From a virus, in IMG/VR virus record IMGVR_UViG_3300033182_000272, positions 1 through 39,426 of that record: a stretch of DNA of 39,426 nt. One strand, written 5' to 3'. Each line of letters begins with the position of its first letter. Within the stretch, counting starts at the first letter, position 1. Under the pieces are notes generated by a model. The model ran no database searches. It was given only the letters and a program-made list of their open reading frames with translations, and was not told the DNA's origin. A program made the position numbers and the translations under genes. Of the stretch, positions 2,959-19,323 are shown piece by piece.

Positions 2959-4818
2959 CTACAGGCCCAGCTGGGCAGCAGCGTCAGCGTCAGCCTGTGC
3001 TTGTGGTTCTAGCTGCGGAGCGTCGGCGCCAACGCCGCCGCCCATGCCTAATGCTTGCATAGCTTGACCGTTTACGCCACCAGGCATTCCCATTTGGGGC
3101 TGCTGTTGCTGCGGAGGCTCTTGCAAGAACTTCTCAGGATTCTTGATAGCAAAGCCATCACGGAGCACAACACGCAACAGCTCTTGAACATTGACTTGGC
3201 CAGTTTGAATAAACGGACCCATTGCTTGCAGCATGCCCAAAGCCGACTGGCGACGGAACGTCTCGTTCTTCGGGACAGTAGATCCTGCTTCAACACGGAA
3301 CTCGTACTGACCCTTGATGTCTTCACGGGTGTAAGGCACAAAAACCGAACCGCCGTCTCGGCCAACTACCTTTGCTGCCTGCTGACCCGTAACGTACTGC
3401 TGGTTAATCTGTAGCAGCTTCGTAGCCAGGTTGGCAATAAACGTTTCGACACGGTCCAGCTTCTCGGCAGTACGCACGTTTGCTGCGTCTTGCAACAGGC
3501 TAGCTTCGGTGGCGGTACGGCGGATCTGGCCGCCGCCGCCACGCATGAACTCGGTAATGCCCGAGATGTCTTGGATGTCGTTTTCGATTGCCTGTGACCA
3601 GTTGTACAGGCCAGGGTCCATGCCGATCTGGTTGACAGGCTGGATTACGTCAGCAAGCGGCACGCTGTCGTCTTCAACAAAGATCACTTCGCCGTCACGC
3701 TTCGAAGCGATTTTGGTCAGGTCAGACTGCGAAATAGCAGCCTTGCGGGCCAGGTACTTCCGTGCGTAACGAGCACGGTGGTTCATCATTTCAGAACGAG
3801 TCTTTGACAGCTCCTTGACCAGCGGAGCGATCATTTCAAGATCGCCCATCGGGTAAAAGTGGTCAGGCACTTCGTAGTTGCGGACCATCTCAAACGGATG
3901 ACCAAACGCATACGGCATTTCACGAGGCCGAATTAGGTACTCGGTAGCGCCAGCCGTAAACGTACACATTGTTTGACGGGCCAAATCGTAAAACTCAAAC
4001 ACCTCAACGAGTTCGTTGGACTCGTAGTTTTCCTTATGGCGAGCGTAGTGAGGGTCTGCCAACGTCAGCCCAGGCATAGCGTTATCACGCGCCTTGCGAC
4101 TGTAAGCAGGGTCAGTCTTTACGTCGTCAATGTGGCGCACGATGCGCTGCGCTACCCAACGGGCGTCTTCTAGCGACGTAGCTTCAGGGTTGACGAACAT
4201 GTCGTGGGGCGAGATGCGCTCCAAAACGGGTCGGTCAACAATCGTTTGTTTGGAAGAAGCAATAATTTGCCTAGCCAGATCTTCATCAGAAGCTGGCTCT
4301 CTGTCTTCTTCTTCGGCAAGAGCCTGCTCGTCAATCAAAGCGGTTTGGAACCTGAGAGCAAACTCTTCTTCCGTCAGGTCTTTTTCTGCTTCTTCGTAGG
4401 ACCACAGCATTTTGCACCAGCCGTGGCCGACGATCAGAGCGTCTTTAACTGCACGGCGGAACGGTTCCTGCATGCGGTAACGTTCCCACTGGTGGTTCAC
4501 CATTGCCTGAACGAACACGGCGCGTGTTTCTAGTTCAGGTTGGTTGGCGACTACAGTGATCTGTGGTCGAGAAACCGAAACAGCAGGGTAGATGACGTTG
4601 ATCGTCGAGAACGCCTGGTTGATTGCAATTCGGTCTTCAGATGCTCGTCCCGAGGCAGGAAAAATGGATTCACCACGGTAAAGGTCGACCATATCGGTCC
4701 AACAGTCATCGTAACCTTCGGTTTCCCGCCACTCTTTGGACCGTTCCAGTTCCTGCCCGTAGTACGACAGAAGTTCTGCCTGTGGCTTCTGCTTCGGTTT
4801 GCGCCCGAAAACAGGCAT
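2959..4818 (-). CDS. Portal (head-tail connector) protein, T7 gp8-like
   Basis: 619 aa. It lies between the terminase genes and the scaffold and capsid genes, with an AGGAG RBS. It has a Q/G/A-rich acidic C-terminal tail. Confidence 0.8.
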   Translation of the reverse strand: MPVFGRKPKQKPQAELLSYYGQELERSKEWRETEGYDDCWTDMVDLYRGESIFPASGRASEDRIAINQAFSTINVIYPAVSVSRPQITVVANQPELETRAVFVQAMVNHQWERYRMQEPFRRAVKDALIVGHGWCKMLWSYEEAEKDLTEEEFALRFQTALIDEQALAEEEDREPASDEDLARQIIASSKQTIVDRPVLERISPHDMFVNPEATSLEDARWVAQRIVRHIDDVKTDPAYSRKARDNAMPGLTLADPHYARHKENYESNELVEVFEFYDLARQTMCTFTAGATEYLIRPREMPYAFGHPFEMVRNYEVPDHFYPMGDLEMIAPLVKELSKTRSEMMNHRARYARKYLARKAAISQSDLTKIASKRDGEVIFVEDDSVPLADVIQPVNQIGMDPGLYNWSQAIENDIQDISGITEFMRGGGGQIRRTATEASLLQDAANVRTAEKLDRVETFIANLATKLLQINQQYVTGQQAAKVVGRDGGSVFVPYTREDIKGQYEFRVEAGSTVPKNETFRRQSALGMLQAMGPFIQTGQVNVQELLRVVLRDGFAIKNPEKFLQEPPQQQQPQMGMPGGVNGQAMQALGMGGGVGADAPQLEPQAQADADAAAQLGL

Positions 4819-5472: not shown

Positions 5473-7053
5473 CTAGGAGATCACCCAATCCTCTTCAACA
5501 TCAAAGCTGTTCTCCCACTTCTGCAACTCCTGCTCGTACCACGCCAACGACATGTACGGGTACTCCACCTCTTCCTGATACTCAGGAGCGTAGGCAAACT
5601 CTAAAGCGTGTACAGCCAACGCCAACGAAATCACACGGTCATCGTGCGGCGAACCAGACATGCCGCCACGACTGTTACGAGTAAACCGTGACAGCTCTGC
5701 ACACGTCGCCACAGACGGCACCCCGTCCGAGCGACGTTCACGCAACCACTTGTGCAACTTGTCAATCATCAACGGCTTCGTGACACGAGTCGTCTTCCAA
5801 CCCCACTCCATCTGCCGTTTCTTGCTTGTCGAGTTCAACGCCATACGACGCCAAATGCGTCTGTACCCCAACTTGCGCAACTCAGTCACAGTCGTCAGGC
5901 CATGGTTGTTGACCTCAGGCAAAACCAGCGCCGTGTTATACCACGTCCCCAACTTAAACAACTCGTAGGCAAACAAGTCAGGTTCGATGTGGCCATGCCA
6001 CTCCGCAACGACCCGAGTTTCGTCACCTACCGCTAACACATGCGCGCTGCTGTAGTCGCCATGTTTCAAACCCTCAGCAACGTCAGCGCCAATCACATAC
6101 GACGTGTCTTCCTCGGGCAACTCCCACACATGCACAAACGACGACGAAGCCAAATTCTCAACAGGTTCAAACGTCCGAGGAAACTCAGGCCCAGGCCCTT
6201 CTAAGTTCAACGTCCACTCAGGCTCAACCGCATCGTTGTTCAACTCCTCCAACAACTCAGCGTTGAACACCATCATGCCCGAACGAATAAACGCCTCAGT
6301 CGGGTTCGACGGGTACTCCTGATGCAGCTGCCACTCAGGCAAATCAAACTGCTTCTGTTCATACCAAGCGTCGTCACGCTCAGTCACAGAGTCCCAGCCG
6401 TAGAACATTGGCTTAAACACCGACTTGCCTGACTGAGCACGCACCCACAGATCTTCGAACTTGTTGCCAGACCCGTTCGCAGTGCTCAGCAGAATGAGCT
6501 GACCGCCAATATCGGCGGTCGGCTCAATCGAAGCCCACGCCTCGCCAGCGTTTTCTAGGAACGCAAACTCGTCCACCACGATCAAGCGGCCCGTGAAACC
6601 ACGGGCAGGATTGTTGCCTGACGGCAGCGACAAGATCTCTGACCCGTTCGACAACTCAACCTTCGTTAGGTTCGACGTAGTCACCCGAGCGCCCCTAGCA
6701 AGCACCCAGCCAGGCAGACGTTCCAAACCAAACTTGACCTTGCCCAACAGCTCCTGTGCTTCACGCTCGCCCTTAGAAAGCAGCATGACCCGAGTGTTTG
6801 GATGCCAATACGCCAACCAGAACACATAGAACGACACCAGCGTTGACCAGCCAATCTGACGGGCCTTGAGAGTGATGCTGTTTTCGCCGTCGACCCAACG
6901 GGTCAAGGCGGCAGCCTGAGACGGCCTGAGATTAAACAGGCGCTCCCCCTGAGGGTGCTGGATCATCCAGCAGTTCTCAGCCACCCAATGAGGGTCCGTA
7001 GCGCCACGGCGCCACGCAGCCTCCCTACGAGCTAGCTCCAACTGGTCCGACAT
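5473..7053 (-). CDS. terL: Terminase large subunit
   Basis: 526 aa. Walker A-like LKARQIGWST, Walker B LIVVDEFAF, and a C-terminal nuclease-type segment IGADVAEG. Confidence 0.9.
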   Translation of the reverse strand: MSDQLELARREAAWRRGATDPHWVAENCWMIQHPQGERLFNLRPSQAAALTRWVDGENSITLKARQIGWSTLVSFYVFWLAYWHPNTRVMLLSKGEREAQELLGKVKFGLERLPGWVLARGARVTTSNLTKVELSNGSEILSLPSGNNPARGFTGRLIVVDEFAFLENAGEAWASIEPTADIGGQLILLSTANGSGNKFEDLWVRAQSGKSVFKPMFYGWDSVTERDDAWYEQKQFDLPEWQLHQEYPSNPTEAFIRSGMMVFNAELLEELNNDAVEPEWTLNLEGPGPEFPRTFEPVENLASSSFVHVWELPEEDTSYVIGADVAEGLKHGDYSSAHVLAVGDETRVVAEWHGHIEPDLFAYELFKLGTWYNTALVLPEVNNHGLTTVTELRKLGYRRIWRRMALNSTSKKRQMEWGWKTTRVTKPLMIDKLHKWLRERRSDGVPSVATCAELSRFTRNSRGGMSGSPHDDRVISLALAVHALEFAYAPEYQEEVEYPYMSLAWYEQELQKWENSFDVEEDWVIS

Positions 7054-7526
7054 TAAGCAGGCCCGATCTCCAACACGTCCTTGCCCTGAGCCAGGTACGC
7101 CTGAAGTTGCTCATCAGACATCGACTGGAACCTGTCCTCAGCCGACACCGTCACCTGAATCTGCGGAGGCCGCACCTTGTCAGCCAACGACAGAATCATC
7201 TTCGACGCAGCATCCCACTTCGGATGGTCAGGATCCGCAGCGATCTTCAACGCAGCCTGGTAAATCGGAGACAACGCATCAGGCCCCAACACCGACTCGT
7301 CAGCCATCTTTGCCCACAACTTACGGAACCGCTCGTCCTTCTTCCAGCGACGCAACGTGCGATCCGCAAGACCATGTCGAGCAGCCCACTCCTTGTCAGA
7401 CAACCTGTCGTGCCCCACAGAGGTCAGGTTCTCCAAATACTGGTGAACCAACGGGTGAGGATCTTCCTCGCCCGTAGACGAGTTGTAAGTCCACCTAAAG
7501 TCATTCGGATTCTCATCAGCTTCCAT
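7053..7526 (-). CDS. terS: Terminase small subunit (candidate; HTH DNA-binding protein)
   Basis: Its ATGA overlaps the terL start. The HTH-like segment is SDKEWAARHGLADRTLRRWKK. I place the start at ATG 7526 (GGGGTGGAC upstream). The tracked TTG start at 7730 would require translating through the strong leader hairpin at 7604-7639. Confidence 0.55.
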   Translation of the reverse strand: MEADENPNDFRWTYNSSTGEEDPHPLVHQYLENLTSVGHDRLSDKEWAARHGLADRTLRRWKKDERFRKLWAKMADESVLGPDALSPIYQAALKIAADPDHPKWDAASKMILSLADKVRPPQIQVTVSAEDRFQSMSDEQLQAYLAQGKDVLEIGPA

Positions 7527-7603
7527 GTCCACCCCGTGGACATCGTCCAACGGGGGGCCGTTGTAGACGCCCTGACGGGCATCTAGAAAGCCTGCAACAA
7601 TGA

Positions 7604-7639
7604 CATTCAATGAGCCGCCCCTCCAGGGGGCGGCGAATG
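7604..7639 (-). promoter_or_regulatory. Leader hairpin element, copy B: CATTC-GCCGCCCC-CTGGA-GGGGCGGC-TCATTGAATG (minus-strand sense)
   Basis: 8-bp GC stem. The 5-nt 5' flank and 10-nt 3' flank are identical to the copy at 13091-13127. It lies in the leader upstream of terS. Confidence 0.7.
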
Positions 7640-7671
7640 CTTGGGCTACTACAGCACGTTCAGCATTGAAG

Positions 7672-7703
7672 AGTCTAGCACACGACATTACACGGTCGTC
7701 CAA
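7672..7703 (-). promoter_or_regulatory. Candidate promoter of the terminase/structural operon (extended -10 TGCTAGACT; -35-like TTGGAC)
   Basis: Minus strand reads TTGGAC-N20-TAGACT with TGC immediately upstream of the -10. The spacer is too long for a canonical -35, so the call rests on the extended -10. Confidence 0.3.
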
Positions 7704-7805
7704 CACCCGAATGCTAGTGAAGCGTCGCAACCAGCGGGCCGCCTGGGGGGCGTCCCGCCAAGCGTAAGCGATAAGCTACTTATCACACGGACGGCGTCCA
7801 CGAAT

Positions 7806-7817
7806 TTCAACGTTGAA
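7806..7817. promoter_or_regulatory. Perfect 12-bp palindrome TTCAACGTTGAA in the AT-richer core of the divergent region
   Basis: Read directly. A neighbouring ATAAG-CTA-CTTAT hairpin lies at 7771-7783. Confidence 0.5.
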
Positions 7818-7904
7818 CTAAACAAGCGGACAACAAAACGGACAGCAAGCCGAAAAAACTGACACAATCTGCAGATCCAAGGAATATTACTAGTACAAAC
7901 GCCG

Positions 7905-7926
7905 CCCCACCCCCCCACTACCCCCC
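7905..7926 (-). other. G-tract cluster (G6-TAGT-G7-T-G4 on the minus strand); potential G-quadruplex or i-motif
   Basis: The plus strand reads CCCCACCCCCCCACTACCCCCC. Four runs of at least three G are available on the minus strand. Confidence 0.4.
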
Positions 7927-7930
7927 GCCT

Positions 7931-8063
7931 GGCAGCTCTGCTGCCGTGCGCGTTGGACCCCGAATGGCCTTGCAGCGGACAGCCCAACGCGCGTAGGAAC
8001 GGGACTTCGTCCCGTCGTGATGCGCTGCGTCGTGACGTCGTGAGGCGGCCTGGCGCGCTGCGT
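7931..8063. repeat. GC-rich structured block carrying iteron-like direct repeats
   Basis: Hairpins: GGCAGC-TCT-GCTGCC (7931-7945), GCGCGTTGG...CCAACGCGC (7948-7992) and ACGGGAC-TTC-GTCCCGT (7999-8015). CGTCGTGA occurs 3 times (8013, 8028, 8036). GCGCTGCGT occurs twice (8022, 8055). Confidence 0.5.
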
Positions 8064-8099
8064 GGAACAACGCGCCGTTGAACCGTGCGTTGTTTGGGC

Positions 8100-8129
8100 T
8101 TGACGGCTCGATCCGATCCGTAGTATGCT
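8100..8129 (+). promoter_or_regulatory. Candidate early promoter P1 (TTGACG -35; -10 is TATGCT at N18 or TAGTAT at N15)
   Basis: The -35 hexamer is at 8100-8105. It shares the 12-mer CGATCCGTAGTA, at the same offset from the -35, with the promoter at 11061. Confidence 0.5.
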
Positions 8130-8217
8130 GATTGGACCGAGCCATCGGCGGCTCGGCGGAGCGAAGCTCCGAAACAACAAAGCCAGCGAAGCTGGCGAAG
8201 CGAAAGGTGCATCGAAG

Positions 8218-9015
8218 ATGCAAACTCTCAAAATCACCTTCGGTGATTTGGTCATCGAAACCACGTCAGACAGCGTAGCTGTCGCTCAGCCGAAGGCTGA
8301 AGCTGCGGCTACTACGGCCGCTCCGTCGACGAAGTCGACGAGCACGAAGCCTTCGGCTTCGAAGAAGCGTCGGTCGACGAAGTCGACCCGCAAGTCGTCG
8401 ACGAAGTCGACGAAGAAGACGACGAAGTCGTCGAAGAACGAGTTCTCCGAACTCAGCGGAGCTGAGTTCCGCTCGACCATCCAGAGGATGGTCGATGAGG
8501 GCAAGTTCTACCAGGCGATCTCGGCTTGCCGAGATCGGGGCTGGGATCCGTCGAAGACGGATGGCCGACTTCGGCCGAAGGCCGACAAGCCGACGAAGTC
8601 GGCCAGCAAGTCGACGAAGTCGACCAAGAAGTCGGCTTCGAAGAAGCCGAGTGCCCCGAAGCCGAAGGCTTCGGCCAAGGCCGATCGGCCCGTCGATCAG
8701 GAGCCGAAGGCTCCTGCCAAGGCCAAGAAGCTTTCAGCTTCTGCTCAGCGGGACTCGGATCTCCGAGTGAAACTCGGAGATACGATCGCCACCTTCGGTG
8801 GCGAGATCGATGAAATCCTTACGGATTTCATTGTCAAGCCCCATCGGAAGCACGTCGCTGTCGAAGACAGCGACATGCTTCTCGACACCTGGATCCAGCT
8901 CTCCGAGCTGGATGGATCGAAGATCCTCGGTCAAGCGGACGACGAAGTCGTCCGAATGGTCGGCAACGCAGTCAACTACGTTGAAGCTCTGGCCAGCAAG
9001 GCTGGCCTGGCCTGA
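8218..9015 (+). CDS. First early protein with two Lys/Ser/Thr-rich, histone-H1-like low-complexity tracts
   Basis: ATG 8218 has GAAAGG upstream. The tracked start at 8125 lies inside the P1 -10 region. The tracts are STKSTSTKPSASKKRRSTKSTRKSSTKSTKKTTKSSK and KPTKSASKSTKSTKKSASKKPSAPKPKASAK...KAPAKAKK. Confidence 0.6.
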   Translation: MQTLKITFGDLVIETTSDSVAVAQPKAEAAATTAAPSTKSTSTKPSASKKRRSTKSTRKSSTKSTKKTTKSSKNEFSELSGAEFRSTIQRMVDEGKFYQAISACRDRGWDPSKTDGRLRPKADKPTKSASKSTKSTKKSASKKPSAPKPKASAKADRPVDQEPKAPAKAKKLSASAQRDSDLRVKLGDTIATFGGEIDEILTDFIVKPHRKHVAVEDSDMLLDTWIQLSELDGSKILGQADDEVVRMVGNAVNYVEALASKAGLA

Positions 9016-9025
9016 TCGGCCCCTG

Positions 9026-9047
9026 GCGGCCCCCTTCGGGGGGCCGC
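9026..9047 (+). terminator. GC hairpin with a UUCG tetraloop after the first early gene
   Basis: GCGGCCCCC-TTCG-GGGGGCCGC, a 9-bp stem. No U-tract follows. Confidence 0.5.
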
Positions 9048-9055
9048 TTCCCCTG

Positions 9056-9126
9056 GCCATCCAAGCTCTGCTTGGATGGCTTGGGGAGGCGAAGCCTCCC
9101 TCACATACACATAGCTCCGTAGGAGC
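9056..9126 (+). promoter_or_regulatory. Three further tandem hairpins in the 9015-9146 spacer
   Basis: GCCATCCAAG-CTCTG-CTTGGATGGC (9056-9080), GGGAGGC-GAA-GCCTCCC (9084-9100) and GCTCC-GTA-GGAGC (9114-9126). Confidence 0.5.
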
Positions 9127-9145
9127 CAAACCAAAGGATCACGAA

Positions 9146-9532
9146 GTGATGCCAGAAACAATGTTTATTGACCAGCTGGTCAGCTTTGCTGACCGTGTTG
9201 ACCTTCAGGTCAAGTTCGCCAGAAAGTTCGACGAACTTTATGGCTTCAAGCACCCCGAAGATTCTCTTCGGCTCGACGAAGAGGCCGAAGATGCCGTCGA
9301 TCAGCTTGCTGATCGGACTGGCGATGTCAAGCTCTCCGAGCTTGTTTGCGAAGTCCTGGCTTCGCCAGAAGATCACATCCTTCGGGATGTGTTCTGGAGC
9401 CGTTGGCTCCAGAATGGAGTCTTCGACTCCACTACCGCCGACCATGAATGGTCGGATTGGGCCGACTCCTTCGGTGACTACGTCACCGCCAAGCACATTT
9501 GGCTGGAAGCCAACGGCAAGCGCGGTCTGTGA
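9146..9532 (+). CDS. Hypothetical acidic protein (about 128 aa)
   Basis: AAAGGA-N7-GTG, with the same GGA..TCACGAAGTG initiation block as the gene at 9717. An in-frame ATG at 9149 is an alternative start. Confidence 0.55.
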   Translation: MMPETMFIDQLVSFADRVDLQVKFARKFDELYGFKHPEDSLRLDEEAEDAVDQLADRTGDVKLSELVCEVLASPEDHILRDVFWSRWLQNGVFDSTTADHEWSDWADSFGDYVTAKHIWLEANGKRGL

Positions 9533-9544
9533 AACAGACCGATC

Positions 9545-9586
9545 ACATGCGGGGTTGCTGTAGCAACCCTACGGCGCCCCGCATGT
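9545..9586 (+). terminator. Long compound hairpin after the gene at 9146-9532
   Basis: ACATGCGGGG...CCCCGCATGT forms a 10-bp outer stem. The inner hairpin is GTTGC-TGTA-GCAAC. Confidence 0.4.
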
Positions 9587-9605
9587 AGGTCGAGAGTCGC
9601 CATCC

Positions 9606-9639
9606 CAGCCCCTAGGGGCTGTCGACGGTGTGCTATAGT
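9606..9639 (+). promoter_or_regulatory. 16-bp perfect palindrome CAGCCCCTAGGGGCTG next to an extended -10 (TGCTATAGT)
   Basis: Palindrome at 9606-9621. TGc-TATAGT at 9631-9639. No good -35 is present, and the palindrome occupies that position. Confidence 0.35.
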
Positions 9640-9716
9640 GGAGTGGCAACAGCGGCCCAGACCGCAGCAATTCATCGGCTCCTACAGCGGAGCTTCACAC
9701 ATAAGGAGGTCACGAA

Positions 9717-9917
9717 GTGACCCAGAAAGCGAAGACCAAGCCCCAGCCGAAGGCTGTGGCCATGTGTAAGCCGAAGGCTTACAACCCCCGAAACCGTCCT
9801 GTAAGGACGGCTTGGCACTGGTCGTCTAACGACGACGTTGAGTTCGCTCCCTCTCTCCGAGAGGGCCGTGACAACGGCTTCTTCGAAGCCGAGGTCGTCT
9901 GCGAAAACCCCTTCTAG
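9717..9917 (+). CDS. Hypothetical small basic protein (66 aa, GTG start)
   Basis: AAGGAGG-N7-GTG. The stop lies inside the hairpin AACCCCT-TCT-AGGGGTT. Confidence 0.55.
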   Translation: MTQKAKTKPQPKAVAMCKPKAYNPRNRPVRTAWHWSSNDDVEFAPSLREGRDNGFFEAEVVCENPF

Positions 9918-9960
9918 GGGTTCACACATACAGCAGCTGAAAGCTGCAGAAAGGTTAGCG

Positions 9961-10467
9961 ATGAATCGCTTCCCCTCTGTCCCATCCGTCTCCGACTTCG
10001 TCGGACCGATCCTCTGCCCCTACTGCGACCTGCCTTTGGCAGGTCGTGGCGGCAACGAATGGTGGGAAATCCACCATTTCGAGAACAACCCGACCTTCGG
10101 TCGGCGTTGGGTCAGCGACGACCCCGAAGGGGTCGTGACCTGCTACCACAAAGGTTGTGGTAGTGGCGACATGTTCCTGGCCTTTCAGGCCATGTCCGAA
10201 GACAGCGAAGCTGTCATTCGTGATCTGCTGAAAGCAGTGAAGCGAGGCCAGTCCTGGCGTGTCGAGCCTTTGGCTCGACGGCTGCAGGATGTCTCCGATG
10301 ACTACGTCATCGTCGACAAGTGGGATCTTGAGCTTCTGAAAGAAGCTGCCGACACTCCTCTTGAGGAGTGGCCCGACGAGAACCCCGAAGACTGCTTCGT
10401 CGACATCGTCGACACGATCGAAGAGAAGCTCTTCGATGCAGCGGATTGCATCCGTTACGAAAGCTGA
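9961..10467 (+). CDS. Zinc-ribbon protein with an acidic C-terminal half (168 aa); the Cys pattern resembles a primase-type zinc finger
   Basis: CPYC...(40 aa)...CYHKGCGSGDMFLAF. GAAAGG RBS. The C-terminus is rich in D and E. Confidence 0.6.
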   Translation: MNRFPSVPSVSDFVGPILCPYCDLPLAGRGGNEWWEIHHFENNPTFGRRWVSDDPEGVVTCYHKGCGSGDMFLAFQAMSEDSEAVIRDLLKAVKRGQSWRVEPLARRLQDVSDDYVIVDKWDLELLKEAADTPLEEWPDENPEDCFVDIVDTIEEKLFDAADCIRYES

Positions 10468-10494
10468 AAGCTTTCGTGGTCTGTAGACGACCTC

Positions 10495-10520
10495 CATGGC
10501 CCCCCTTCGGGGGGGCCATG
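10495..10520 (+). terminator. GC hairpin with a UUCG tetraloop
   Basis: CATGGCCCCCC-TTCG-GGGGGGCCATG, an 11-bp stem. Confidence 0.5.
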
Positions 10521-10553
10521 CGGGATGCTCGACAGGCATCACATCACACATAT

Positions 10554-10576
10554 GGCGGGGGCCGAAGGCCCCCGCC
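10554..10576 (+). repeat. 23-nt hairpin GGCGGGGGCC-GAA-GGCCCCCGCC, copy 1
   Basis: Identical 23-mer at 10899-10921. Both copies are followed by C(A/C)ACACA and an SD. Confidence 0.8.
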
Positions 10577-10598
10577 CAACACACAAGGAGGAACGACT

Positions 10599-10886
10599 AT
10601 GTCGTTCGGATATGACCCCGAAGCCGTCATCCAAGATGCCGACATCGAAATGGCCCAGTTGGAAGCCGAGGCCCGTCGACTTCGTCGACTGGAATCACAG
10701 GGGATCTGCACACACCAGGGTGTGCAGGGCCGTGGTGACGGCAAAGGCCCCCTTCCAGGGGGCTTGTACCGAGAGTCCCAGAGGGACATCCCGAAGGGCC
10801 ACTTGAAGTGCCATGGCTGCGGCACTCTCTTTGAGAGTGACGAGGCTTGGTACGCCGCCAGTGAGATTGCCCGAAGGGCAGTCTGA
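10599..10886 (+). CDS. Hypothetical protein (95 aa) with a CxxC motif
   Basis: AAGGAGG RBS. Contains CTHQG...CHGCG. Confidence 0.6.
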   Translation: MSFGYDPEAVIQDADIEMAQLEAEARRLRRLESQGICTHQGVQGRGDGKGPLPGGLYRESQRDIPKGHLKCHGCGTLFESDEAWYAASEIARRAV

Positions 10887-10898
10887 CAGTTACCCGTC

Positions 10899-10921
10899 GG
10901 CGGGGGCCGAAGGCCCCCGCC
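10899..10921 (+). repeat. 23-nt hairpin GGCGGGGGCC-GAA-GGCCCCCGCC, copy 2
   Basis: Exact copy of 10554-10576. Confidence 0.8.
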
Positions 10922-10938
10922 CCACACAGGGGATTCAC

Positions 10939-11037
10939 ATGCACATCTTCGAAACTTTCAACGGTTTCACCGTTCTCATCCTGCTTCTGCTCGCTGGCGC
11001 TTGGCTGGCCCTGCTCGCCTATGAGGGGAAGCTCTGA
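10939..11037 (+). CDS. Candidate 32-aa single-pass membrane peptide
   Basis: MHIFETFNGFTVLILLLLAGAWLALLAYEGKL. GGGGA lies upstream. It is flanked by the hairpin at 10899 and the promoter at 11061. Confidence 0.4.
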   Translation: MHIFETFNGFTVLILLLLAGAWLALLAYEGKL

Positions 11038-11060
11038 CCACCTACGGTGATCCTGCTGAT

Positions 11061-11090
11061 TTGACAGCGATTGCCGATCCGTAGTACAGT
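11061..11090 (+). promoter_or_regulatory. Candidate promoter P2 (TTGACA -35; -10 is TACAGT at N18 or TAGTAC at N15)
   Basis: Shares TTGAC(R)-N8-CGATCCGTAGTA with P1. Confidence 0.5.
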
Positions 11091-11150
11091 TGTTGCCGTC
11101 GTCGAACGGCGACCACCGAAACACCACGTCCCACGAAGGGAATCACACAC

Positions 11151-11372
11151 ATGAAAACACTCGCCATGAACAAGCACATCGGTTCGATGGATCTCATCGC
11201 CGCTTTGCGGAAAGACCGTGACGTGGCCGCCCGTGAAGGGTTCACGAATGTCGTTTCACGACAGGACGAGATGATCCGTTGGATCGAAGGGACCATGGCC
11301 AAGTTCTGCGAACTTGACAAGTGCCAAGGCGTCGTTGTCGAAGTTTCGATCGTTGCCACGATCAACGAGTGA
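11151..11372 (+). CDS. Hypothetical protein (73 aa)
   Basis: Preceded by the conserved block GAAGGGAATCACACACATG. Confidence 0.65.
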   Translation: MKTLAMNKHIGSMDLIAALRKDRDVAAREGFTNVVSRQDEMIRWIEGTMAKFCELDKCQGVVVEVSIVATINE

Positions 11373-11386
11373 AGGGAATCACACAC

Positions 11387-11563
11387 ATGACATGGTCGGG
11401 AATCGACTCCGTCGAGACAAAGCGACTCCGAAGCAAGGCCCGTCTGAAAGACGGCCAGTGCCTCTACTGCAAGCCGCACCGTGGTGAGAACCACGGCAAG
11501 CGAGACGGCAAGTACCTTGACGGCGGGACGTTCCGTCCCTCCAAGGACAAGCGCCGCAAGTAA
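11387..11563 (+). CDS. Hypothetical basic protein (58 aa)
   Basis: Preceded by the same 19-nt block GAAGGGAATCACACACATG. Confidence 0.6.
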   Translation: MTWSGIDSVETKRLRSKARLKDGQCLYCKPHRGENHGKRDGKYLDGGTFRPSKDKRRK

Positions 11564-11591
11564 TCACATACCCCCACGAAGGGAATCACAC

Positions 11592-12437
11592 ATGACCACA
11601 TCCGACGCAATGAACCTGTTCATTGCCATCTCCACCATGCTGGGTGGCGGCAAGGCTCCGTACTTGTTCACCCCGCAGAAAGCCAGCGTCAAGTTGTCTC
11701 ACAACTTCGATGTCACAGACAAGTACGAGCAGATTGTCTGCTACTTGCTGCCACACCGCAGCGGCAAAGCCGCTTGGGAAGCCAACACCACCGCCGAACA
11801 ACGCAAAGCGTTTGACTGGCTGGTCTGGAAGAACCTGTGTGTGGCGTCTACACGGGGCTGCCGTGCGGCTTGCCTTCACATGGCAGGTCGACTCGGCATG
11901 GCTGGCATCGCCAAGCTGGCTCGTACAGCTTTGCTGGCTGCAAGCAGCCACGAGAGCGGTCCATTCTGGACCGTCATGGACGCCGAGATCACACGCCACA
12001 AGGCCCGTGTGGCCCGTAACGGCAAGGAACTTGTCGTTCGGTTGAACGGCACCAGCGACATCGACGTTCCGTCGTGGCTCATCGAGAAGCATGACGATGT
12101 CATCTTCTTCACCTACACGAAGCGGTCCGACATCCCGTTGGGATGGATGATGTCACAGCCCAACGTCTACAACGTCTTCTCCGCTTCGGAGAATACGTCG
12201 GACGAACTGATCCACGAGATCCTCTCCGAGGATGTCAACGTCGTCGTCCCCTTCGACGTGAAGCGTGGCGACGACCTGCCGACCGAGTACCTCGGTCACC
12301 GTGTGATCGACGGCGACAAGCACGACCTTCGGTTCCTCGACGATGACGGAGTCATCGTGGGTCTGCGCTACAAGCCAGTCCCTGGCTCACCGAACCACCA
12401 CGGCTTCATCCGCCCCGTCCCCGTCAGCATTCGCTGA
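11592..12437 (+). CDS. Conserved phage protein resembling the GP88 family as I recall it (281 aa)
   Basis: Motifs CVASTRGCRAACLHMAGR, VRLNGTSDI, FFTYTK and VIDGDKHDLRF...VGLRYK. Preceded by CCACGAAGGGAATCACACATG. The family name is from memory and is unverified. Confidence 0.6.
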   Translation: MTTSDAMNLFIAISTMLGGGKAPYLFTPQKASVKLSHNFDVTDKYEQIVCYLLPHRSGKAAWEANTTAEQRKAFDWLVWKNLCVASTRGCRAACLHMAGRLGMAGIAKLARTALLAASSHESGPFWTVMDAEITRHKARVARNGKELVVRLNGTSDIDVPSWLIEKHDDVIFFTYTKRSDIPLGWMMSQPNVYNVFSASENTSDELIHEILSEDVNVVVPFDVKRGDDLPTEYLGHRVIDGDKHDLRFLDDDGVIVGLRYKPVPGSPNHHGFIRPVPVSIR

Positions 12438-12534
12438 CCATCACAGGAGGATCACATGCACAACTGATCCCGCCCCGAGCAAGGCTGAAACTGCTCCCTC
12501 CAATGCGGCCAGGAGGCATCAGGCTGCACCACAC

Positions 12535-12556
12535 GGCGGGGGCTTCGGCCCCCGCC
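12535..12556 (+). terminator. GC hairpin with a UUCG tetraloop
   Basis: GGCGGGGGC-TTCG-GCCCCCGCC. Confidence 0.5.
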
Positions 12557-12576
12557 CCACATAAGGAATCACAGAC

Positions 12577-12735
12577 ATGTACATCGTAGTCCTCGGAGAT
12601 CCCGTCGACGGTTTCACCTTCTGGGGTCCATTCAGGAACGTCGAAGACGCCATCGACTGGGCCGAACGATCCGTCCTCACCACTTCGTGGTGGATCGCTG
12701 ACTTGAACGTCAACGACTGGGTCAACCACAAGTAG
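12577..12735 (+). CDS. Hypothetical protein (52 aa)
   Basis: MYIVVLGDPVDGFTFWGPF... Preceded by AAGGAATCACAGACATG. Too short to appear in the ORF track. Confidence 0.55.
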   Translation: MYIVVLGDPVDGFTFWGPFRNVEDAIDWAERSVLTTSWWIADLNVNDWVNHK

Positions 12736-12746
12736 CAACACACACA

Positions 12747-12768
12747 GCGGGGGGCTTCGGCCCCCCGC
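12747..12768 (+). terminator. GC hairpin with a UUCG tetraloop
   Basis: GCGGGGGGC-TTCG-GCCCCCCGC. Confidence 0.5.
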
Positions 12769-12790
12769 CCTTTCACAAGGAATCACAGAC

Positions 12791-13036
12791 ATGAAATACC
12801 ATCACGACACCGTCACCATCGCTGCAACCTGCCGCTGGCACGACGAACCCCGTAGGGCGACCGTCGAAGTGTCGGCCACGTCCCTTCGGGACTACCTGAA
12901 CGGAGATCCCGTCATCCTCGTCCAGACCGCTTTCCCCGATCTCACACCCAACCAGCGCGAGATCGTGATTGAACAGCGTGTACGGGGCGCCTACATGTGT
13001 GAAGACTGCTGGGCCGAAATGGGCGAGGAGGAGTAA
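12791..13036 (+). CDS. Hypothetical protein (81 aa)
   Basis: Preceded by the identical block AAGGAATCACAGACATG. Confidence 0.65.
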   Translation: MKYHHDTVTIAATCRWHDEPRRATVEVSATSLRDYLNGDPVILVQTAFPDLTPNQREIVIEQRVRGAYMCEDCWAEMGEEE

Positions 13037-13048
13037 TCACAGGGGAGT

Positions 13049-13079
13049 TTGACGAGCGCGAGAGTGCCGTGTGTACAAT
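13049..13079 (+). promoter_or_regulatory. Candidate promoter P3 (TTGACG-N19-TACAAT)
   Basis: Good hexamers but a long spacer. It shares TTTGACGAG with P4. Confidence 0.4.
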
Positions 13080-13080
13080 C

Positions 13081-13159
13081 GAATGCCTGTCATTCGCCGC
13101 CCCCGTGATGGGGCGGCTCATTGAATGCCGAATGCCTCTAGCTGTAGAAGCCAAATGCC
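13081..13159 (+). repeat. Four direct copies of (G/A)AATGCC between P3 and P4
   Basis: GAATGCC at 13081, 13123 and 13130. AAATGCC at 13153. Confidence 0.6.
13091..13127 (+). promoter_or_regulatory. Leader hairpin element, copy A: CATTC-GCCGCCCC-CGTGAT-GGGGCGGC-TCATTGAATG
   Basis: Stem and flanks are the same as the minus-strand copy at 7604-7639. It begins about 5-10 nt after the predicted P3 start site. Confidence 0.7.
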
Positions 13160-13177
13160 TACGGCAAGAGCATTGAT

Positions 13178-13207
13178 TTGACGAGTGCTGACGAGCTGTG
13201 GTAGCTT
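13178..13207 (+). promoter_or_regulatory. Candidate promoter P4 (TTGACG-N18-TAGCTT)
   Basis: Canonical spacing. It lies about 45 nt upstream of the SD of the gene at 13254. Confidence 0.5.
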
Positions 13208-13253
13208 GTTTGGCATCGAAGTTCGGCCCGACGCCGAGCAGATAGGAGTCGTT

Positions 13254-13547
13254 ATGAGCGACACAGACACATCCATCACGACCGAGACGGACACGGAGAT
13301 CCCGACGTTCGACTTCGCCATCCTGTTCTGGGGCGGCTGGTCTGTGGGCAACAGCTACGCTGAAGCCCTCGATAACGCCATGAAGTTCGGGCTAGGCGGT
13401 CGCCGCAAGCCGCACCTGCTGGTCGCTTTCAGCGTCCCTGTGCAGCATGTGAGAGCGTCGATGTTCGGCCTGGAATGGCAGTGGACCGACATGAACGGTG
13501 GCAAAGCCATCGAGATCCCGATGAACGGGTACGGAGAGGAGTCCTGA
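13254..13547 (+). CDS. Hypothetical protein (97 aa)
   Basis: TAGGAG RBS. It is the first gene downstream of P4. Confidence 0.6.
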   Translation: MSDTDTSITTETDTEIPTFDFAILFWGGWSVGNSYAEALDNAMKFGLGGRRKPHLLVAFSVPVQHVRASMFGLEWQWTDMNGGKAIEIPMNGYGEES

Positions 13548-13708
13548 TGGGGGCACGAGGCCGCCGACCGATGGCAGATGAAACCCACTTCGTGGGGGTC
13601 ACGTTGCCACAGGAGCTGTACGAGGAAATCCTGCAGGCTGCGGAGGACGCTGAGCGTTCTCTTGCTGGCCAGATCCGCTTCATGCTGAAGCGCTGCACTG
13701 CCCGATGA
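13547..13708 (+). CDS. Ribbon-helix-helix (Arc/CopG-like) DNA-binding protein (53 aa)
   Basis: TGATG start-stop overlap with the upstream gene. THFVGVTLPQELYEEILQAAEDAERSLAGQIRFML fits a beta-strand, helix, helix pattern. Confidence 0.6.
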   Translation: MGARGRRPMADETHFVGVTLPQELYEEILQAAEDAERSLAGQIRFMLKRCTAR

Positions 13709-13794
13709 CAGCGTCCAGCACACACGCCATGCGGTGTGTGTGTTGGGCGAAGCCATTCGGCTTCACACACATCAACGTACCTGGGAGGTACACA
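13709..13794 (+). promoter_or_regulatory. Intergenic cassette 1 (CAGCGTCCA, hairpins, GGGCGAAG..CTTCACACACA, SD)
   Basis: Hairpins at 13719-13740 and at 13749-13764 (GAAGCC-ATTC-GGCTTC). Its layout parallels 14245-14338. Confidence 0.55.
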
Positions 13795-14244
13795 ATGCAA
13801 ATCACCATCGAGAATCTGGAGCTGTCTGTCGACAGCGATGTTCTCTTCGACGAGATCCGTGACGAGATCACGACGCTCATCGAAGATGCCGTACACGACG
13901 CTGTGCAGGAGGCTGTGATGCCTGCTGCGGAGGATGCCGTGGCCGAGTACCTTCGGTACAACTTCGACATCACCGACTACTTCGACGGCAGCAACCTTGA
14001 CACCATCGTTGACGCAGTCAACGCTCGCAAGGCCGAAGCCGACACGTCGACCGAAGTCTCCGACTTCATGAAGCTGCTCGGTGATCGCGATGTCGCCATG
14101 GCTCTCCGAGCACTGATGACACCGAAGGTGCTGTCGGAGATCATCGACACGCCGCCCGTCCGTGACCTGCTGATGCGGCTGATCGCAGATCAGCTCGTCT
14201 TCGGTCAGCCCGTCGAGATTGCCTCGACGGAGGGCATGCGCTGA
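13795..14244 (+). CDS. Strongly acidic protein (149 aa, about 32 D/E against about 11 K/R); candidate DNA-mimic or anti-restriction protein
   Basis: GGGAGG RBS. The residue composition was counted by hand. It lies directly upstream of the DUF932-like gene. Confidence 0.6.
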   Translation: MQITIENLELSVDSDVLFDEIRDEITTLIEDAVHDAVQEAVMPAAEDAVAEYLRYNFDITDYFDGSNLDTIVDAVNARKAEADTSTEVSDFMKLLGDRDVAMALRALMTPKVLSEIIDTPPVRDLLMRLIADQLVFGQPVEIASTEGMR

Positions 14245-14338
14245 TGGCAGCGTCCATGTCACAGGGGTCATGTACCTTTGTGGCATGGGCGAAGTCCTCG
14301 GACTTCACACACACAACCCGACCCAGGAGGTCACAGAT
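14245..14338 (+). promoter_or_regulatory. Intergenic cassette 2, paralogous to 13709-13794
   Basis: CAGCGTCCA at 14249. GGGCGAAGTCC-TC-GGACTTCACACACA at 14287-14313. AGGAGG SD. Confidence 0.55.
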
Positions 14339-15307
14339 ATGGGAGCCATTCCCGAAACCATGATGTCGAACAGCGGCACTACGCCGTGGCACGGCATCGG
14401 CACAATCATCGACGAGTTCGTCGATGGCCAGCGAGCCCTTGAGCTTGGCGGTATCGACTGGTCCGTCAGCAAGGTGCCGCTGTACACGGTGACAGACCCG
14501 TTCGCCCCCAAGCTGGAGGACACCTTCAAGCTGGTGGAAGGCAACGTCGCCCTGCAGGATTCCAACGGACGCAACCTGTCCGTCGTCTCACCGAAGTACG
14601 AAGTGCTGCAGAACGAAGAGTTGGCCGACATCACAGACACGCTGGGCCTGAACGTCCAGACGTGCGGTCAGATGTGGGACGGCAAGTTCGTCTGGATGCT
14701 GTCGGATCTGGGCGAGTCGCCCCGCTTCGACGGCACCGACGAAGCCATGCATCGCTGGCTGCTCGTGTCGACCTGGCACGGCAGCGGTGCGTTCCGCATC
14801 GAAGGCGTCAACATCCGAGTGGTGTGTGAGAACACCCTTCGGATCGCTCAGAGCGGCGGTGAGCTGTTCCACAGCATCCAGCACCGCAGCGGCGCCTACG
14901 ACCGTTTGGCCGAGGCCAAGCTGGCTCTCGTTGAGACGTACAACGGCTTCGACGAGTTCGATGCCTGGGCAGCTTCGCTGATGAACAAGCACGTCAGCCG
15001 CGTCACCTTCGGTGACGAAGTGCTGGAGCAGCTGTTCCCCCGCCCCGATGCTGACGCATCGGACCGTGTCCGTCACAACTGGCACAACCGTCGCCAGACG
15101 CTCCGCAACATCTTCGATGGCCCGACCATCGGGGGTCAGGAAACCGCCTGGCACTTCCTGCAGACGATCAACGAGTTCGAACTGTGGCATCAGGGCCACG
15201 GCAAGGACACGACTCGTCGTGCCAAGCAAACGGCTCAGGCCAAGGCATGGGCCAACGCACGGTTCCCACTCACCAACAAGGCCGCAGGGATCTTGCAGAG
15301 CGTGTGA
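14339..15307 (+). CDS. DUF932-like (phage/plasmid-like protein) family member (322 aa)
   Basis: N-terminus MSNSGTTPWHGIGT, plus IDWSVSKVPLY and NIRVVCENTL. This matches my memory of the family and is not checked. Confidence 0.7.
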   Translation: MGAIPETMMSNSGTTPWHGIGTIIDEFVDGQRALELGGIDWSVSKVPLYTVTDPFAPKLEDTFKLVEGNVALQDSNGRNLSVVSPKYEVLQNEELADITDTLGLNVQTCGQMWDGKFVWMLSDLGESPRFDGTDEAMHRWLLVSTWHGSGAFRIEGVNIRVVCENTLRIAQSGGELFHSIQHRSGAYDRLAEAKLALVETYNGFDEFDAWAASLMNKHVSRVTFGDEVLEQLFPRPDADASDRVRHNWHNRRQTLRNIFDGPTIGGQETAWHFLQTINEFELWHQGHGKDTTRRAKQTAQAKAWANARFPLTNKAAGILQSV

Positions 15308-15316
15308 CGAGTGTGG

Positions 15317-15342
15317 ATGTGGGGGGCTACGGTCCCCCACAT
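15317..15342 (+). terminator. Hairpin ATGTGGGGG-N8-CCCCCACAT
   Basis: 9-bp stem, followed by TCATTCACACA and an SD. Confidence 0.45.
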
Positions 15343-15367
15343 TCATTCACACAGAAGGGAGACGCAC

Positions 15368-15571
15368 ATGCGTCTAGTAGTCAATGTCCACCTGCAAGGT
15401 GGCTTGCCAGAGAACAAAGAAGAGTATCTCGATACTCTCACCGACATCGCTGAAGAGATGCTGGAGACGTACCGTCCAGCCGACTATGCGAAGTGGTGGC
15501 TCACAAGCGTGGCCGTGCAGCCAGCACCGAAGTCGCTGATGCACACACGAGATCTCACGATCGACAACTAG
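15368..15571 (+). CDS. Hypothetical protein (67 aa)
   Basis: AAGGGAG RBS. Confidence 0.55.
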   Translation: MRLVVNVHLQGGLPENKEEYLDTLTDIAEEMLETYRPADYAKWWLTSVAVQPAPKSLMHTRDLTIDN

Positions 15572-15585
15572 CTTGTAGGCGACAC

Positions 15586-15619
15586 CCAGCCCGTCGCCCC
15601 TTCGGGGCGGCGGGTTGGT
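15586..15619 (+). terminator. 15-bp hairpin with a UUCG tetraloop
   Basis: CCAGCCCGTCGCCCC-TTCG-GGGGCGGCGGGTTGG, including two G-U pairs. Confidence 0.55.
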
Positions 15620-15658
15620 TGATGTCAACAAGGACATCCACAGACACACGGAGGCAAC

Positions 15659-15898
15659 ATGGACTCCTACATAGCCACGTTTTACGCCATCATCTTTGGC
15701 CTTTCGGCCATCGGCACTCTGCTGCTGGCCAAGTGGTTTGAACGAGACAAGCAGCGTCGTGCCGACGCCGAAGAGTTCTGGCGGCAGATGCAACCGAACC
15801 TGTACAACGGTGGCCTGAAAGGCCACCTGCACACAGACGAAGACCAACTACAACAACCACCCGTCCTCCCTGAGGACTACAGAGATTGGAGCAAGTGA
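15659..15898 (+). CDS. Membrane protein with one N-terminal TM helix (79 aa)
   Basis: YIATFYAIIFGLSAIGTLLLAKWF. CGGAGG RBS. Confidence 0.6.
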   Translation: MDSYIATFYAIIFGLSAIGTLLLAKWFERDKQRRADAEEFWRQMQPNLYNGGLKGHLHTDEDQLQQPPVLPEDYRDWSK

Positions 15899-16038
15899 TG
15901 AGTGAAACTCCTGCAGAACGAGCACGCCGCAAGGCGCGCCAAGACCGAGCGACCAACGTGTACGGCGTAGGCGCTACACAGCTGTTGCGTGGCCTGCGCC
16001 ACCTGCAAGCCGAGAAGGCTTGGGAAGAGGAGGAGTGA
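15898..16038 (+). CDS. Hypothetical protein (46 aa)
   Basis: TGATG overlaps at both ends. Too short to appear in the ORF track. Confidence 0.4.
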   Translation: MSETPAERARRKARQDRATNVYGVGATQLLRGLRHLQAEKAWEEEE

Positions 16039-16217
16039 TGTTCGTTCCTGACTACAACATCGGCAACTACGAAGTAGAAGTCGACGACGAGAACCTCGTG
16101 GCACGGGTGATCTACTCGCCCACAGGCAAGCCCCTCGTGAAGTTCACAGGCGAGCATGCGTGGTCACGAGCGCGTGCCCACGCCGACGACATGCACTGGG
16201 CAACGGGAGGCAAGTGA
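16038..16217 (+). CDS. Hypothetical protein (59 aa)
   Basis: TGATG coupling at both ends. Confidence 0.5.
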   Translation: MFVPDYNIGNYEVEVDDENLVARVIYSPTGKPLVKFTGEHAWSRARAHADDMHWATGGK

Positions 16218-16729: not shown

Positions 16730-16730
16730 C

Positions 16731-17567: not shown

Positions 17568-17598
17568 TTGGACCGTTGCGTAAAGCAGCGGCTACATT
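17568..17598 (+). promoter_or_regulatory. Weak candidate internal promoter (TTGGAC-N19-TACATT)
   Basis: This is the only hairpin-free long spacer in this part of the operon. The hexamer spacing is suboptimal. Confidence 0.2.
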
Positions 17599-17658
17599 GG
17601 GAAACCAGTTGGGGGGCAAAACAGAGCACCCCCACATACAGGCCCACAGGAGGGCAAC

Positions 17659-18144: not shown

Positions 18145-18158
18145 GCCGTCCATGATCT

Positions 18159-19316: not shown

Positions 19317-19323
19317 GGGGGAC

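Follow-up and report, generated by a model that had tools for sequence, protein, structure and literature searches.

A hairpin with two fixed single-stranded arms lies at the heads of two divergent gene blocks in an uncultured podovirus-like phage

The window analysed here, the whole stretch of 39,426 nucleotides (nt) of IMG/VR record IMGVR_UViG_3300033182_000272, is the genome of an uncultured, podovirus-like phage in which two oppositely transcribed gene blocks are each preceded by one copy of a short element, 36-37 bases long, composed of a GC-rich stem-loop and two fixed single-stranded arms. The element is a folded hairpin that is selected both for the structure of its stem and for the sequence of its arms, and it is placed once at the head of each non-early transcription unit, oriented with transcription. 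The window begins and ends with the same 141 nt (1-141 and 39286-39426), which indicates a complete circular assembly of 39,285 bp; such ends are most simply explained by assembly overlap, 141 being a common largest k-mer, and a true terminal repeat is less likely. The closest TerL among deposited phages shares 42% identity, no nucleotide match to deposited phages was found, and the two comparisons returned no cultured relative. TerL relatives were also sought in GTDB genomes in an attempt to identify the host, and none was found there.

On the minus strand, the genes run from terS (7526-7053) through terL and the portal gene and, across the circular junction, that of a 2137-amino-acid (2137-aa) protein, down to ~24,370, forming a structural block of ~22 kb. 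The plus-strand genes span 8125-24,605: small open reading frames (ORFs) without assigned function come first, until 13,036, and are followed by copy B of the element and by a replication/recombination block of ~11 kb, with genes, in this order, for a ribbon-helix-helix protein, a DUF932 protein, a PD-(D/E)XK exonuclease, a DnaB-type helicase, an AEP primase and RusA. A protein with weak likeness to sigma region 4 is also encoded among the plus-strand genes after copy B. The two copies and their nearest genes and promoter are as follows; the bit scores come from an unfiltered search of the whole window with the family's covariance model.

7604-7639, minus strand: copy A of the element, CATTC / GCCGCCCC-CTGGA-GGGGCGGC / TCATTGAATG, in the leader of the terS-terL-portal (structural) block; 68.1 bits
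13091-13127, plus strand: copy B of the element, CATTC / GCCGCCCC-CGTGAT-GGGGCGGC / TCATTGAATG, between the small early ORFs and the replication/recombination block; 61.6 bits
13049-13079, plus strand: sigma-70-type promoter directly 5′ of copy B, with -35 TTGACG (13049-13054), a 19-nt spacer and -10 TACAAT (13074-13079)
7053-7526, minus strand: terS candidate, the first gene 3′ of copy A (phrog_2538 terminase small subunit, E 1.2e-4)
5473-7053, minus strand: terL, which follows terS
2959-4818, minus strand: portal gene, P22/SU10-type
13254-13708, plus strand: genes of a 97-aa protein and a 53-aa ribbon-helix-helix protein, the first two genes 3′ of copy B

An earlier note, made from the sequence alone, had described two exact copies that differ only in their loops, read in the sense direction of the genes downstream and head two oppositely transcribed gene blocks, and the present analysis confirms this arrangement as real. 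The pattern CATTCGCCGCCCC-N4-8-GGGGCGGCTCATTGAATG has two matches in the window, at 7604-7639 on the minus strand and 13091-13127 on the plus strand, and none in 100 shuffles; outside the loop (CTGGA vs CGTGAT) the copies are identical. A looser search of the whole window for CATTC-N17-30-TCATT enclosing a hairpin yielded no third copy, and the next hit of the covariance model, at 23 bits, is a bare GC hairpin. The note's remark that the other GC hairpins lack the flanks also holds, as none of the ~80 other perfect GC hairpins catalogued in the genome carries them. The copies are on opposite strands, 5.5 kb from each other, each in an intergenic leader and sense to the flanking ORFs: the start of terS (7526, minus strand) is 78 nt 3′ of copy A, and the ORF at 13254 (plus strand), preceded by an AGGAG ribosome-binding site, follows copy B. 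The two copies fold with predicted energies of -23.5 and -22.6 kcal/mol (z -3.3 and -2.2). At gathering thresholds Rfam gave no match in the whole window, and around the two copies its matches were all sub-threshold.

Relatives were collected from IMG/VR with TerL and DUF932 queries and form one clade, with 83-98% identity in TerL and 67-86% in DUF932. The element is present at both positions in every relative that covers them: copy A is kept at the same place in L002-L005, L008-L011 and L013, and copy B in L023-L028. A degenerate pattern scan of the 2.9 million viral contigs of IMG/VR returned only this clade, including two complete genomes (3300027801_000061 and 3300032360_000024) with two matches each on opposite strands. 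Relatives with a TerL identity of 60% or less (L014, L041-L045) lack the element. An 18-mer match in L021 proved to be a chance occurrence inside a coding region, with no hairpin.

The alignment of 13 instances from at least eight genomes, 12 of them distinct in sequence, separates a variable stem from constant arms. CATTCG and CTCATT-A are invariant in all 13 instances, and the arms CATTC and TCATT(G/A)A are fixed across the clade. The stem takes four sequences (GCCGCCCC, GTGGCCCC, GCGGCCC and GCGGCTCCC); three of its pairs are altered on both sides (C-G to U-A twice and C-G to G-C once) and none is broken. Paired cells amount to 95% for the stem and 89% for the whole structure, vs 40-51% when the partner column is slid, and RNAalifold, applied independently to the alignment, gives only the 8-bp stem. 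The loops, of 3-6 nt, differ in sequence and length, and the arm-to-arm distance ranges from 19 to 22 nt, a spacing that is a poor fit to two half-sites on rigid duplex DNA and natural for the foot of a hairpin. Differing stems with identical arms occur even within one genome (L013 with L024, and L009 with L028). The single variable position of the 3′ arm is matched between the copies of a genome, TCATTGA being found in both copies of window-type genomes and TCATTAA in both of the L009/L010 type, which suggests a shared reader or gene conversion.

The earlier note had made its proposal depend on conservation of the flanks in related phages, and the invariance of the arms at both positions, the compensatory stem changes and the variable distance between flanks support it on this point. 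Its extension of the stem by pairing CATTC with GAATG around a TCATT bulge has to be abandoned: the pairing is broken in four to five of the 12 distinct sequences, is never compensated and is ignored by RNAalifold. As for its proposal of an RNA-level element, the pattern of conservation fits a folded and, most simply, RNA-level element with a sequence-specific reader. Two other explanations of the arms were discarded. Translation of a small ORF through the hairpin, an idea raised by the conserved TGA/TAA stop in the 3′ arm, is ruled out by the reading frames, that of copy A having a TAG three codons upstream with no start codon in between and that of copy B being shifted by the loop length. 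A sigma-54 or extracytoplasmic-function-type promoter formed by the arms is at odds with their spacing, which varies over 19-22 nt, and with hexamers that fit poorly.

The leaders contain several further features.

7672-7680, minus strand: extended -10 candidate TGcTAGACT, 32 nt 5′ of copy A, in window-type genomes only
7773-7787, minus strand: conserved block TGTGATAAGTAGCTT, ~130 nt 5′ of copy A, in all aligned relatives
7734-7758, minus strand: further conserved hairpin of the leader, GCGGGACGCC-CCCCA-GGCGGCCCGC (one internal mismatch), located 3′ of the promoter-like block and 5′ of copy A
13178-13207, plus strand: second promoter-like site, TTGACG-N18-TAGCTT, 3′ of copy B and before the ORF at 13254, shared with L024 only

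The placement of copy B just downstream of a promoter, as the earlier note had it, is well founded. The element starts 11 nt after the -10 hexamer in the window and 11-23 nt after the promoter across relatives, and the promoter itself is found in 7/7 aligned relatives, with -10 TACAAT, TAGACT, TAGAAT or TATAAT and -35 TTGACG or TTGTAC; the promoter scan, which allowed spacers of 16-18 nt only, missed it on account of its 19-nt spacer. The extended -10 site that the note had placed in front of copy A fared differently, as it is deleted in the subclade of L009, L010 and L011, which retains the element. The conserved block TGTGATAAGTAGCTT, which resembles an extended -10 site, is probably the better candidate for a late-block promoter. 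The genes at 13254-13708 and the next ORF (13795-14244) make up one accessory module. L023 and L025 lack it, and their copy B is 91-160 nt away from the DUF932 gene. The search for homologues of the 97-aa protein returned close relatives only.

Other conserved signals surround the terS leader. Direct repeats on the minus strand, TGTCCG (7844-7839 and 7832-7827) and CGTCCG (7793-7788), are kept in relatives, lie upstream of and overlap the promoter-like block TGTGATAAGTAGCTT, and are candidate activator or operator sites. A conserved hairpin, AUGUCCA-CGGGG-UGGACAU (7525-7543, minus strand), in which only the loop varies among relatives, reaches two bases into the terS start codon (7526-7524), includes the preceding G-rich stretch, and may be a translational gate for terS. 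In L014 (TerL 42%), the terS leader (500-560) has a different, 12-bp GC hairpin, GGCGGCTACCCC-GTA-GGGGTAGCCGCC, which begins 12 nt after the TGTATAAT box (TATAAT) upstream of terS; a promoter-proximal GC hairpin before terS may thus be a wider habit of this phage group.

A dispersed 10-mer, here called motif X, accompanies both copies.

7644-7653, minus strand: motif X, TGTAGTAGCC, 4 nt 5′ of copy A
13143-13152, plus strand: motif X, TGTAGAAGCC, 15 nt 3′ of copy B

At copy B in relatives, a small covarying hairpin (GGCTGC-TGTA-GCAGCC) has motif X as its loop and 3′ arm. The 10-mer TGTAGNNGCC (mostly TGTAG-N-[C/A]-GCC) occurs 27 times in the window, on both strands and in several reading frames, vs 5.8 +/- 1.6 (maximum 10) in protein-preserving synonymous-codon shuffles; further sites lie at 9677-9686 and 12986-12995, both on the minus strand. 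It is enriched in relatives too, including two with only 50% TerL identity, and in all relatives one copy adjoins each copy of the element, often with an inverted partner on the other side of it.

The genome is rich in other repeats and hairpins. Dense, perfect short hairpins fill 8300-11000 of the plus strand: 8300-10300 holds 43 whose stem has 7 bp or more and whose loop has 3-4 nt, vs 0.27 expected from frame-wise shuffles (maximum 2), and kilobases 8-10 hold 56, compared with ~1 per kb elsewhere. GAA (14) and TTC (6) predominate in the loops, C-GAA-G being a frequent form. Some derive from (Ser-Thr-Lys)n coding repeats (TCGACGAAG) in the ORF at 8125-9015, and many are unique palindromes of 9-11 bp inside ORFs or in the 9015-9110 gap; no comparable cluster was seen in the parts of relatives examined. 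Two intergenic hairpin families on the plus strand have their own conserved flanks and no U-tract, namely GGCGGGGGCC-GAA/TTCG-GGCCCCCGCC, followed by CCACA..AGGA and a start codon, and TGTGTGTTGGGCGAAGCC...GGCTTCACACACA, which precedes GGGAGGT ribosome-binding sites; the coordinates of the two families are 10554-10576, 10899-10921, 12535-12556 and 12747-12768, and 13737-13789 and 14279-14331. In the structural block, a tandem duplication on the minus strand (33098-33231 and 33463-33596, 77% identity) encodes two paralogous proteins of ~50 aa (MNV..EEV..MQ.RFPKE.EIC.LAIQNQK), and runs with a 9-nt period at 34522-35342 (minus strand) in the ORF at 33564-35597 correspond to collagen-like Gly-X-Y repeats of a 677-aa protein, presumably a tail fibre.

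The interpretation that we tentatively favour, by analogy with the nut and put sites of other phages, is that of an operon-head recognition site for a trans-acting factor. An 8-9-bp GC stem of arbitrary sequence would hold two invariant single-stranded arms, 5′ CAUUC and 3′ UCAUU(G/A)A, together at its foot, where they would be read by a putative sequence-specific factor supplied in trans. With one copy in the 5′ leader of each long non-early transcription unit, ~11 kb for replication/recombination and ~22 kb for structural genes, this factor, once bound to the leader RNA, would decide what becomes of the transcription complex, or of the transcript, in both units together. The element would thereby act as nascent RNA rather than as extruded DNA, and the outcome would be read-through or processivity control rather than cleavage. 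Arms of such specificity, and a distribution limited to two copies per genome, both at operon heads, speak for a dedicated reader and for operon-level control, and the position of copy B 11-23 nt after a promoter places it at the start of the transcript. Also in favour are the lack of a U-tract and the tRNA gene that starts 8 nt behind copy A in L008 and L009, which polymerase can reach only by passing the element. Two products of the window, the sole hints of a reader, are candidate regulators judging by their sequences.

23121-23663, plus strand: 180-aa protein with weak likeness to sigma-70 region 4 (Pfam E 8e-4; PHROG 'RNA polymerase sigma factor' E 1.5e-6), with no significant match among PDB sequences
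15898-16038, plus strand: 46-aa ORF with an arginine-rich N-terminus (ERARRKARQDR)

Several observations weigh against an operon-head recognition site. The antisense strands of both copies fold equally well and the stem variation is all Watson-Crick, except for U-G pairs next to the loop, so that the RNA strand is assigned from orientation alone. The phylogenetic depth is shallow, comprising one genus-level clade with about three independent stem changes. The distance from copy A to the conserved promoter-like block is variable, about 90-130 nt; the loop is not conserved, unlike that of boxB, and there is a single hairpin, unlike in put. Nothing resembling N, Q or NusG was recognised in the ORFs compared with Pfam or PHROGs, a comparison that did not extend to several small ORFs, including that at 15898-16038. 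Sense-oriented canonical intrinsic terminators do not rise above background in either block, and no target for antitermination is visible within the blocks, in which Rho-dependent sites cannot be judged.

Nearly as likely as such a recognition site, if still doubtful, is a module for RNA processing or stability, in which a single-strand-specific endoribonuclease of the host or the phage, of the RNase E type, would cut the C↓AUU of the arms and leave the GC hairpin to protect, as a cap, the 3′ end of the upstream RNA (early or leader), and to cap the 5′ end of the downstream operon mRNA. RNase E prefers RN↓WUU, which G-C↓A-U-U would fit; the same CAUU is present in both arms, single-stranded and adjoining a stable stem, and a G precedes the 5′ arm in 11 of the 13 sequences. 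Copy B marks the exact boundary between two gene blocks irrespective of the genes on either side, and in the terS leaders of L008 (496-570) and L009 (1041-1115) a gene for tRNA-Pro(GGG), which requires 5′ processing, starts 8 nt after the 3′ arm of copy A; L010 and L011 have a similar stretch at this position that ARAGORN does not call as a tRNA. The lack of a U-tract is also in keeping with processing, and since the genome has further intergenic hairpin families without U-tracts, the capping of mRNAs by hairpins seems to be a general trait of this phage. Arms that are invariant over 5-7 nt are, on the other hand, far more specific than a loose RNase E site requires, and a general stabilizer would be expected at many junctions, while only two of the many intergenic hairpins carry the arms. 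The strong 8-9-bp GC helix and the position of copy B after the last early ORF also recall a factor-independent attenuator or terminator, which would halt part of the transcription into the middle and late blocks, and the absence of canonical sense U-tract terminators anywhere might mean that this host-phage pair uses tail-less hairpins. We consider this quite improbable. The tail after the stem, UCAUUGAA or UCAUUAAA, has three U in eight bases, where an intrinsic terminator was defined by a GC-rich hairpin directly followed by a U-tract of at least five in eight; a canonical terminator is thereby ruled out, and the terminator scan lists neither copy. The conserved promoter lies between the upstream stop codon and copy B, so that its own transcripts would abort at ~+40, and termination leaves the invariant 5′ arm unexplained. 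Two relatives have a tRNA gene directly behind copy A, so that polymerase should read through that copy, and this, together with the missing U-tract, makes a plain attenuator the least likely of the functions that the earlier note had listed. Slightly less probable again is a site acting at the DNA level, either a cruciform or single-strand hairpin extruded for a DNA enzyme (an origin, a nick site or an N4-type promoter) or a recombination cassette. It would accord with the equal folding of both strands, with informative covariation that is all Watson-Crick, with the extraordinary cluster of GAA-triloop hairpins nearby and with the presence of a 2137-aa virion-block protein without assigned function. 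The orientation of the element is, however, tied to transcription at both loci, and its positions are operon heads rather than a replication or packaging landmark common to both. N4-type hairpin promoters combine a 5-7-bp stem and a 3-nt loop with a virion RNA polymerase, whereas here the stem has 8-9 bp and the loops, of 3-6 nt, are not conserved; the ORFs scanned yielded no RNA polymerase and no HUH or Rep nuclease, and the 2137-aa protein had no Pfam, PHROGs or PDB sequence match that would mark it as a virion RNA polymerase, remote homology not being excluded by these comparisons. That the arms persist across diverged relatives whose stems have changed further argues against a passive repeat.

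An unlikely alternative links the element to the CRISPR repeats of type I-G. It would be a solitary repeat-like unit, bound or cut by the Cas6-family protein Csb2 of the host and serving as a Racr-like decoy (an RNA anti-CRISPR) or else as a processing site that has been hijacked; equally improbable is its more specific form, a diverged solitary I-G repeat behind the promoters of the middle and late operons, with Csb2 acting at the invariant CUC↓AUU. The likeness lies in the layout. Repeats of type I-G (I-U) have 36-37 nt in the form G-N-N-W-T / CCGAGGCN-loop-NGCCTCGG / CCTCATTGAAGC, with a 5′ arm ending in (A/T)TCC, an 8-bp GC stem and a 12-nt tail, and the element, of 36-37 nt as well, has 5′ (GC)ATTC, an 8-9-bp GC hairpin and 3′ CTCATTGAA, in the polarity of CRISPR RNA (crRNA) relative to transcription; a 5′ arm of the form (A/T)T(C/T)C is common to both, and the 3′ arm of the element is identical to the conserved part of these repeats. 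Two I-G entries in the supplementary table of the Racr paper end in GGCCTCATTGAAGC (PMC10651486), and a metagenome scan revealed in L090 a 27-repeat I-G array with the repeat GCATCCGAGGCAGAGATGCCTCGGCCTCATTGAAGC, of a family that adjoins cas3u-cas8-csb1-csb2-cas4/1-cas2 on a Cereibacter plasmid and is also found in Methylocalor, Azospirillum and Methylomagnum. Csb2 cuts 4 nt 3′ of the stem, leaving an 8-nt handle (10.1101/2022.08.08.503147), and this position would fall within CUC↓AUU. Viral solitary repeats are reported often to lie immediately behind a promoter, and Racr candidates are required to have one within 250 bp upstream (PMC10651486); copy B is directly behind its predicted promoter, TTGACG-N19-TACAAT, which ends 11 nt upstream, and copy A has predicted promoter-like blocks 32 and ~130 nt upstream, the distal block alone being conserved. 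Both copies are intergenic, as expected of solitary repeats, with no neighbouring repeats or cas genes and no cas domains among the ORFs scanned. The best Rfam match of copy B is CRISPR-DR16 (17.2 bits, E 0.12), but it falls below the gathering score of 35, and copy A and three relatives gave no such match. SRUFinder accepts a repeat match from a bit score of at least 41.1 (PMC10651486), and the best score of blastn-short, run with nine element variants against 10 I-G repeats rather than the 17,823-repeat database, was 18.3 bits, for an exact match of 9 nt. A covariance model built from eight I-G repeats (R2) gave copy B 10.7 bits (E 0.49, rank 3 in the window) and copy A 7.1 bits (E 6.3, rank 15), and global similarity to I-G repeats is only z 2-2.6 above that of the other GC hairpins of the genome. 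Relative to the arms, moreover, the hairpin is displaced by 1-2 nt, and the handle ends in differing bases (TG, GC or AA). With the patterns used, no arrays of element-type repeats were found in GTDB representatives or JGI metagenomes: the 21 matches in GTDB genomes are all single hairpins, and the JGI metagenomes held standard I-G arrays only, the spacers of which had no match to the phage. BLAST of the element against plasmids returned no arrays, a literature search for the handle strings gave nothing relevant, and across IMG/VR the element is confined to one phage clade. As all the quantitative similarity tests fail, the likeness to type I-G is resemblance, not membership.

Beside these comparisons, a two-unit mini-array of I-G-like repeats, the first of them degenerate, was noticed at 890-985 of L087, a metagenomic contig of 1.5 kb without cas genes. 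The second repeat, GCATTCGAGGCGTGTGCGCCTCGGCCTCATTGAAGG, has 7 nt at its 5′ end and 9 nt at its 3′ end in common with the phage element.

One short hairpin with two fixed arms marks the starts of the replication and structural blocks and thereby offers a concrete regulatory signal for an uncultured clade. If an operon-head recognition site with a dedicated reader is the correct interpretation, the element would allow compact joint switching or processing of two divergent operons. If the resemblance to type I-G repeats were real, it would bear on RNA-based anti-CRISPR strategies: Csb2 and Cas7 could be titrated from real crRNAs, in a subtype without a tested RNA anti-CRISPR, or, alternatively, a host CRISPR nuclease could be recruited to process polycistronic phage mRNAs. 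Should neither the dedicated reader nor the CRISPR link hold, a clean, structure-constrained leader hairpin would still be useful in annotating related metagenomic phages.

Among known systems, hairpins without a U-tract in leaders or between transcription units are familiar from the RNase III sites of T7 (for example R0.3, behind the early promoters) and from 5′ and 3′ stabilizer hairpins, which share with the element a proposed role in defining and protecting transcript ends. RNase III sites, however, comprise about two helical turns, with upper and lower stems around an internal loop, those of T7 being interrupted helices of at least ~20 bp, whereas only a stem of 8-9 bp is conserved here. 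The PeSL cassettes of T4-type phages are likewise repeated modules of promoter plus hairpin at the boundaries of gene blocks. PeSLs are repeats of an early promoter and a stem-loop that precedes it, present in many copies and used in recombination; in the phage described here the hairpin follows the promoter, there are two copies only, and the stems diverge while the arms are fixed. The putL and putR sites of HK022 come closer, being two sense copies just after the promoters of divergent operons with a structure constrained by covariation, but a put site spans ~70 nt, has two stem-loops and works independently of protein, whereas the element is one 8-9-bp hairpin whose conserved part is single-stranded. 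The nutL and nutR sites of lambdoid phages, composed of boxA and boxB and read by N and Nus factors, are similar in that two sense-oriented copies occupy the leaders of divergent operons, with a short hairpin and a conserved single-stranded flank on nascent RNA and a proposed role in coordinating long operons. They differ in that N contacts the boxB loop, which is variable in the element; the element has no boxA consensus, its conserved single-stranded parts being CAUUC and UCAUURA, it serves middle and late units rather than early ones, and neither an N-like protein nor downstream terminators are visible for it. By kind the element is a phage leader RNA hairpin, and what is new in it is the place of the presumed recognition: lying in the arms and not in the loop, it would give the element a build unlike that of nut, put and Q sites.

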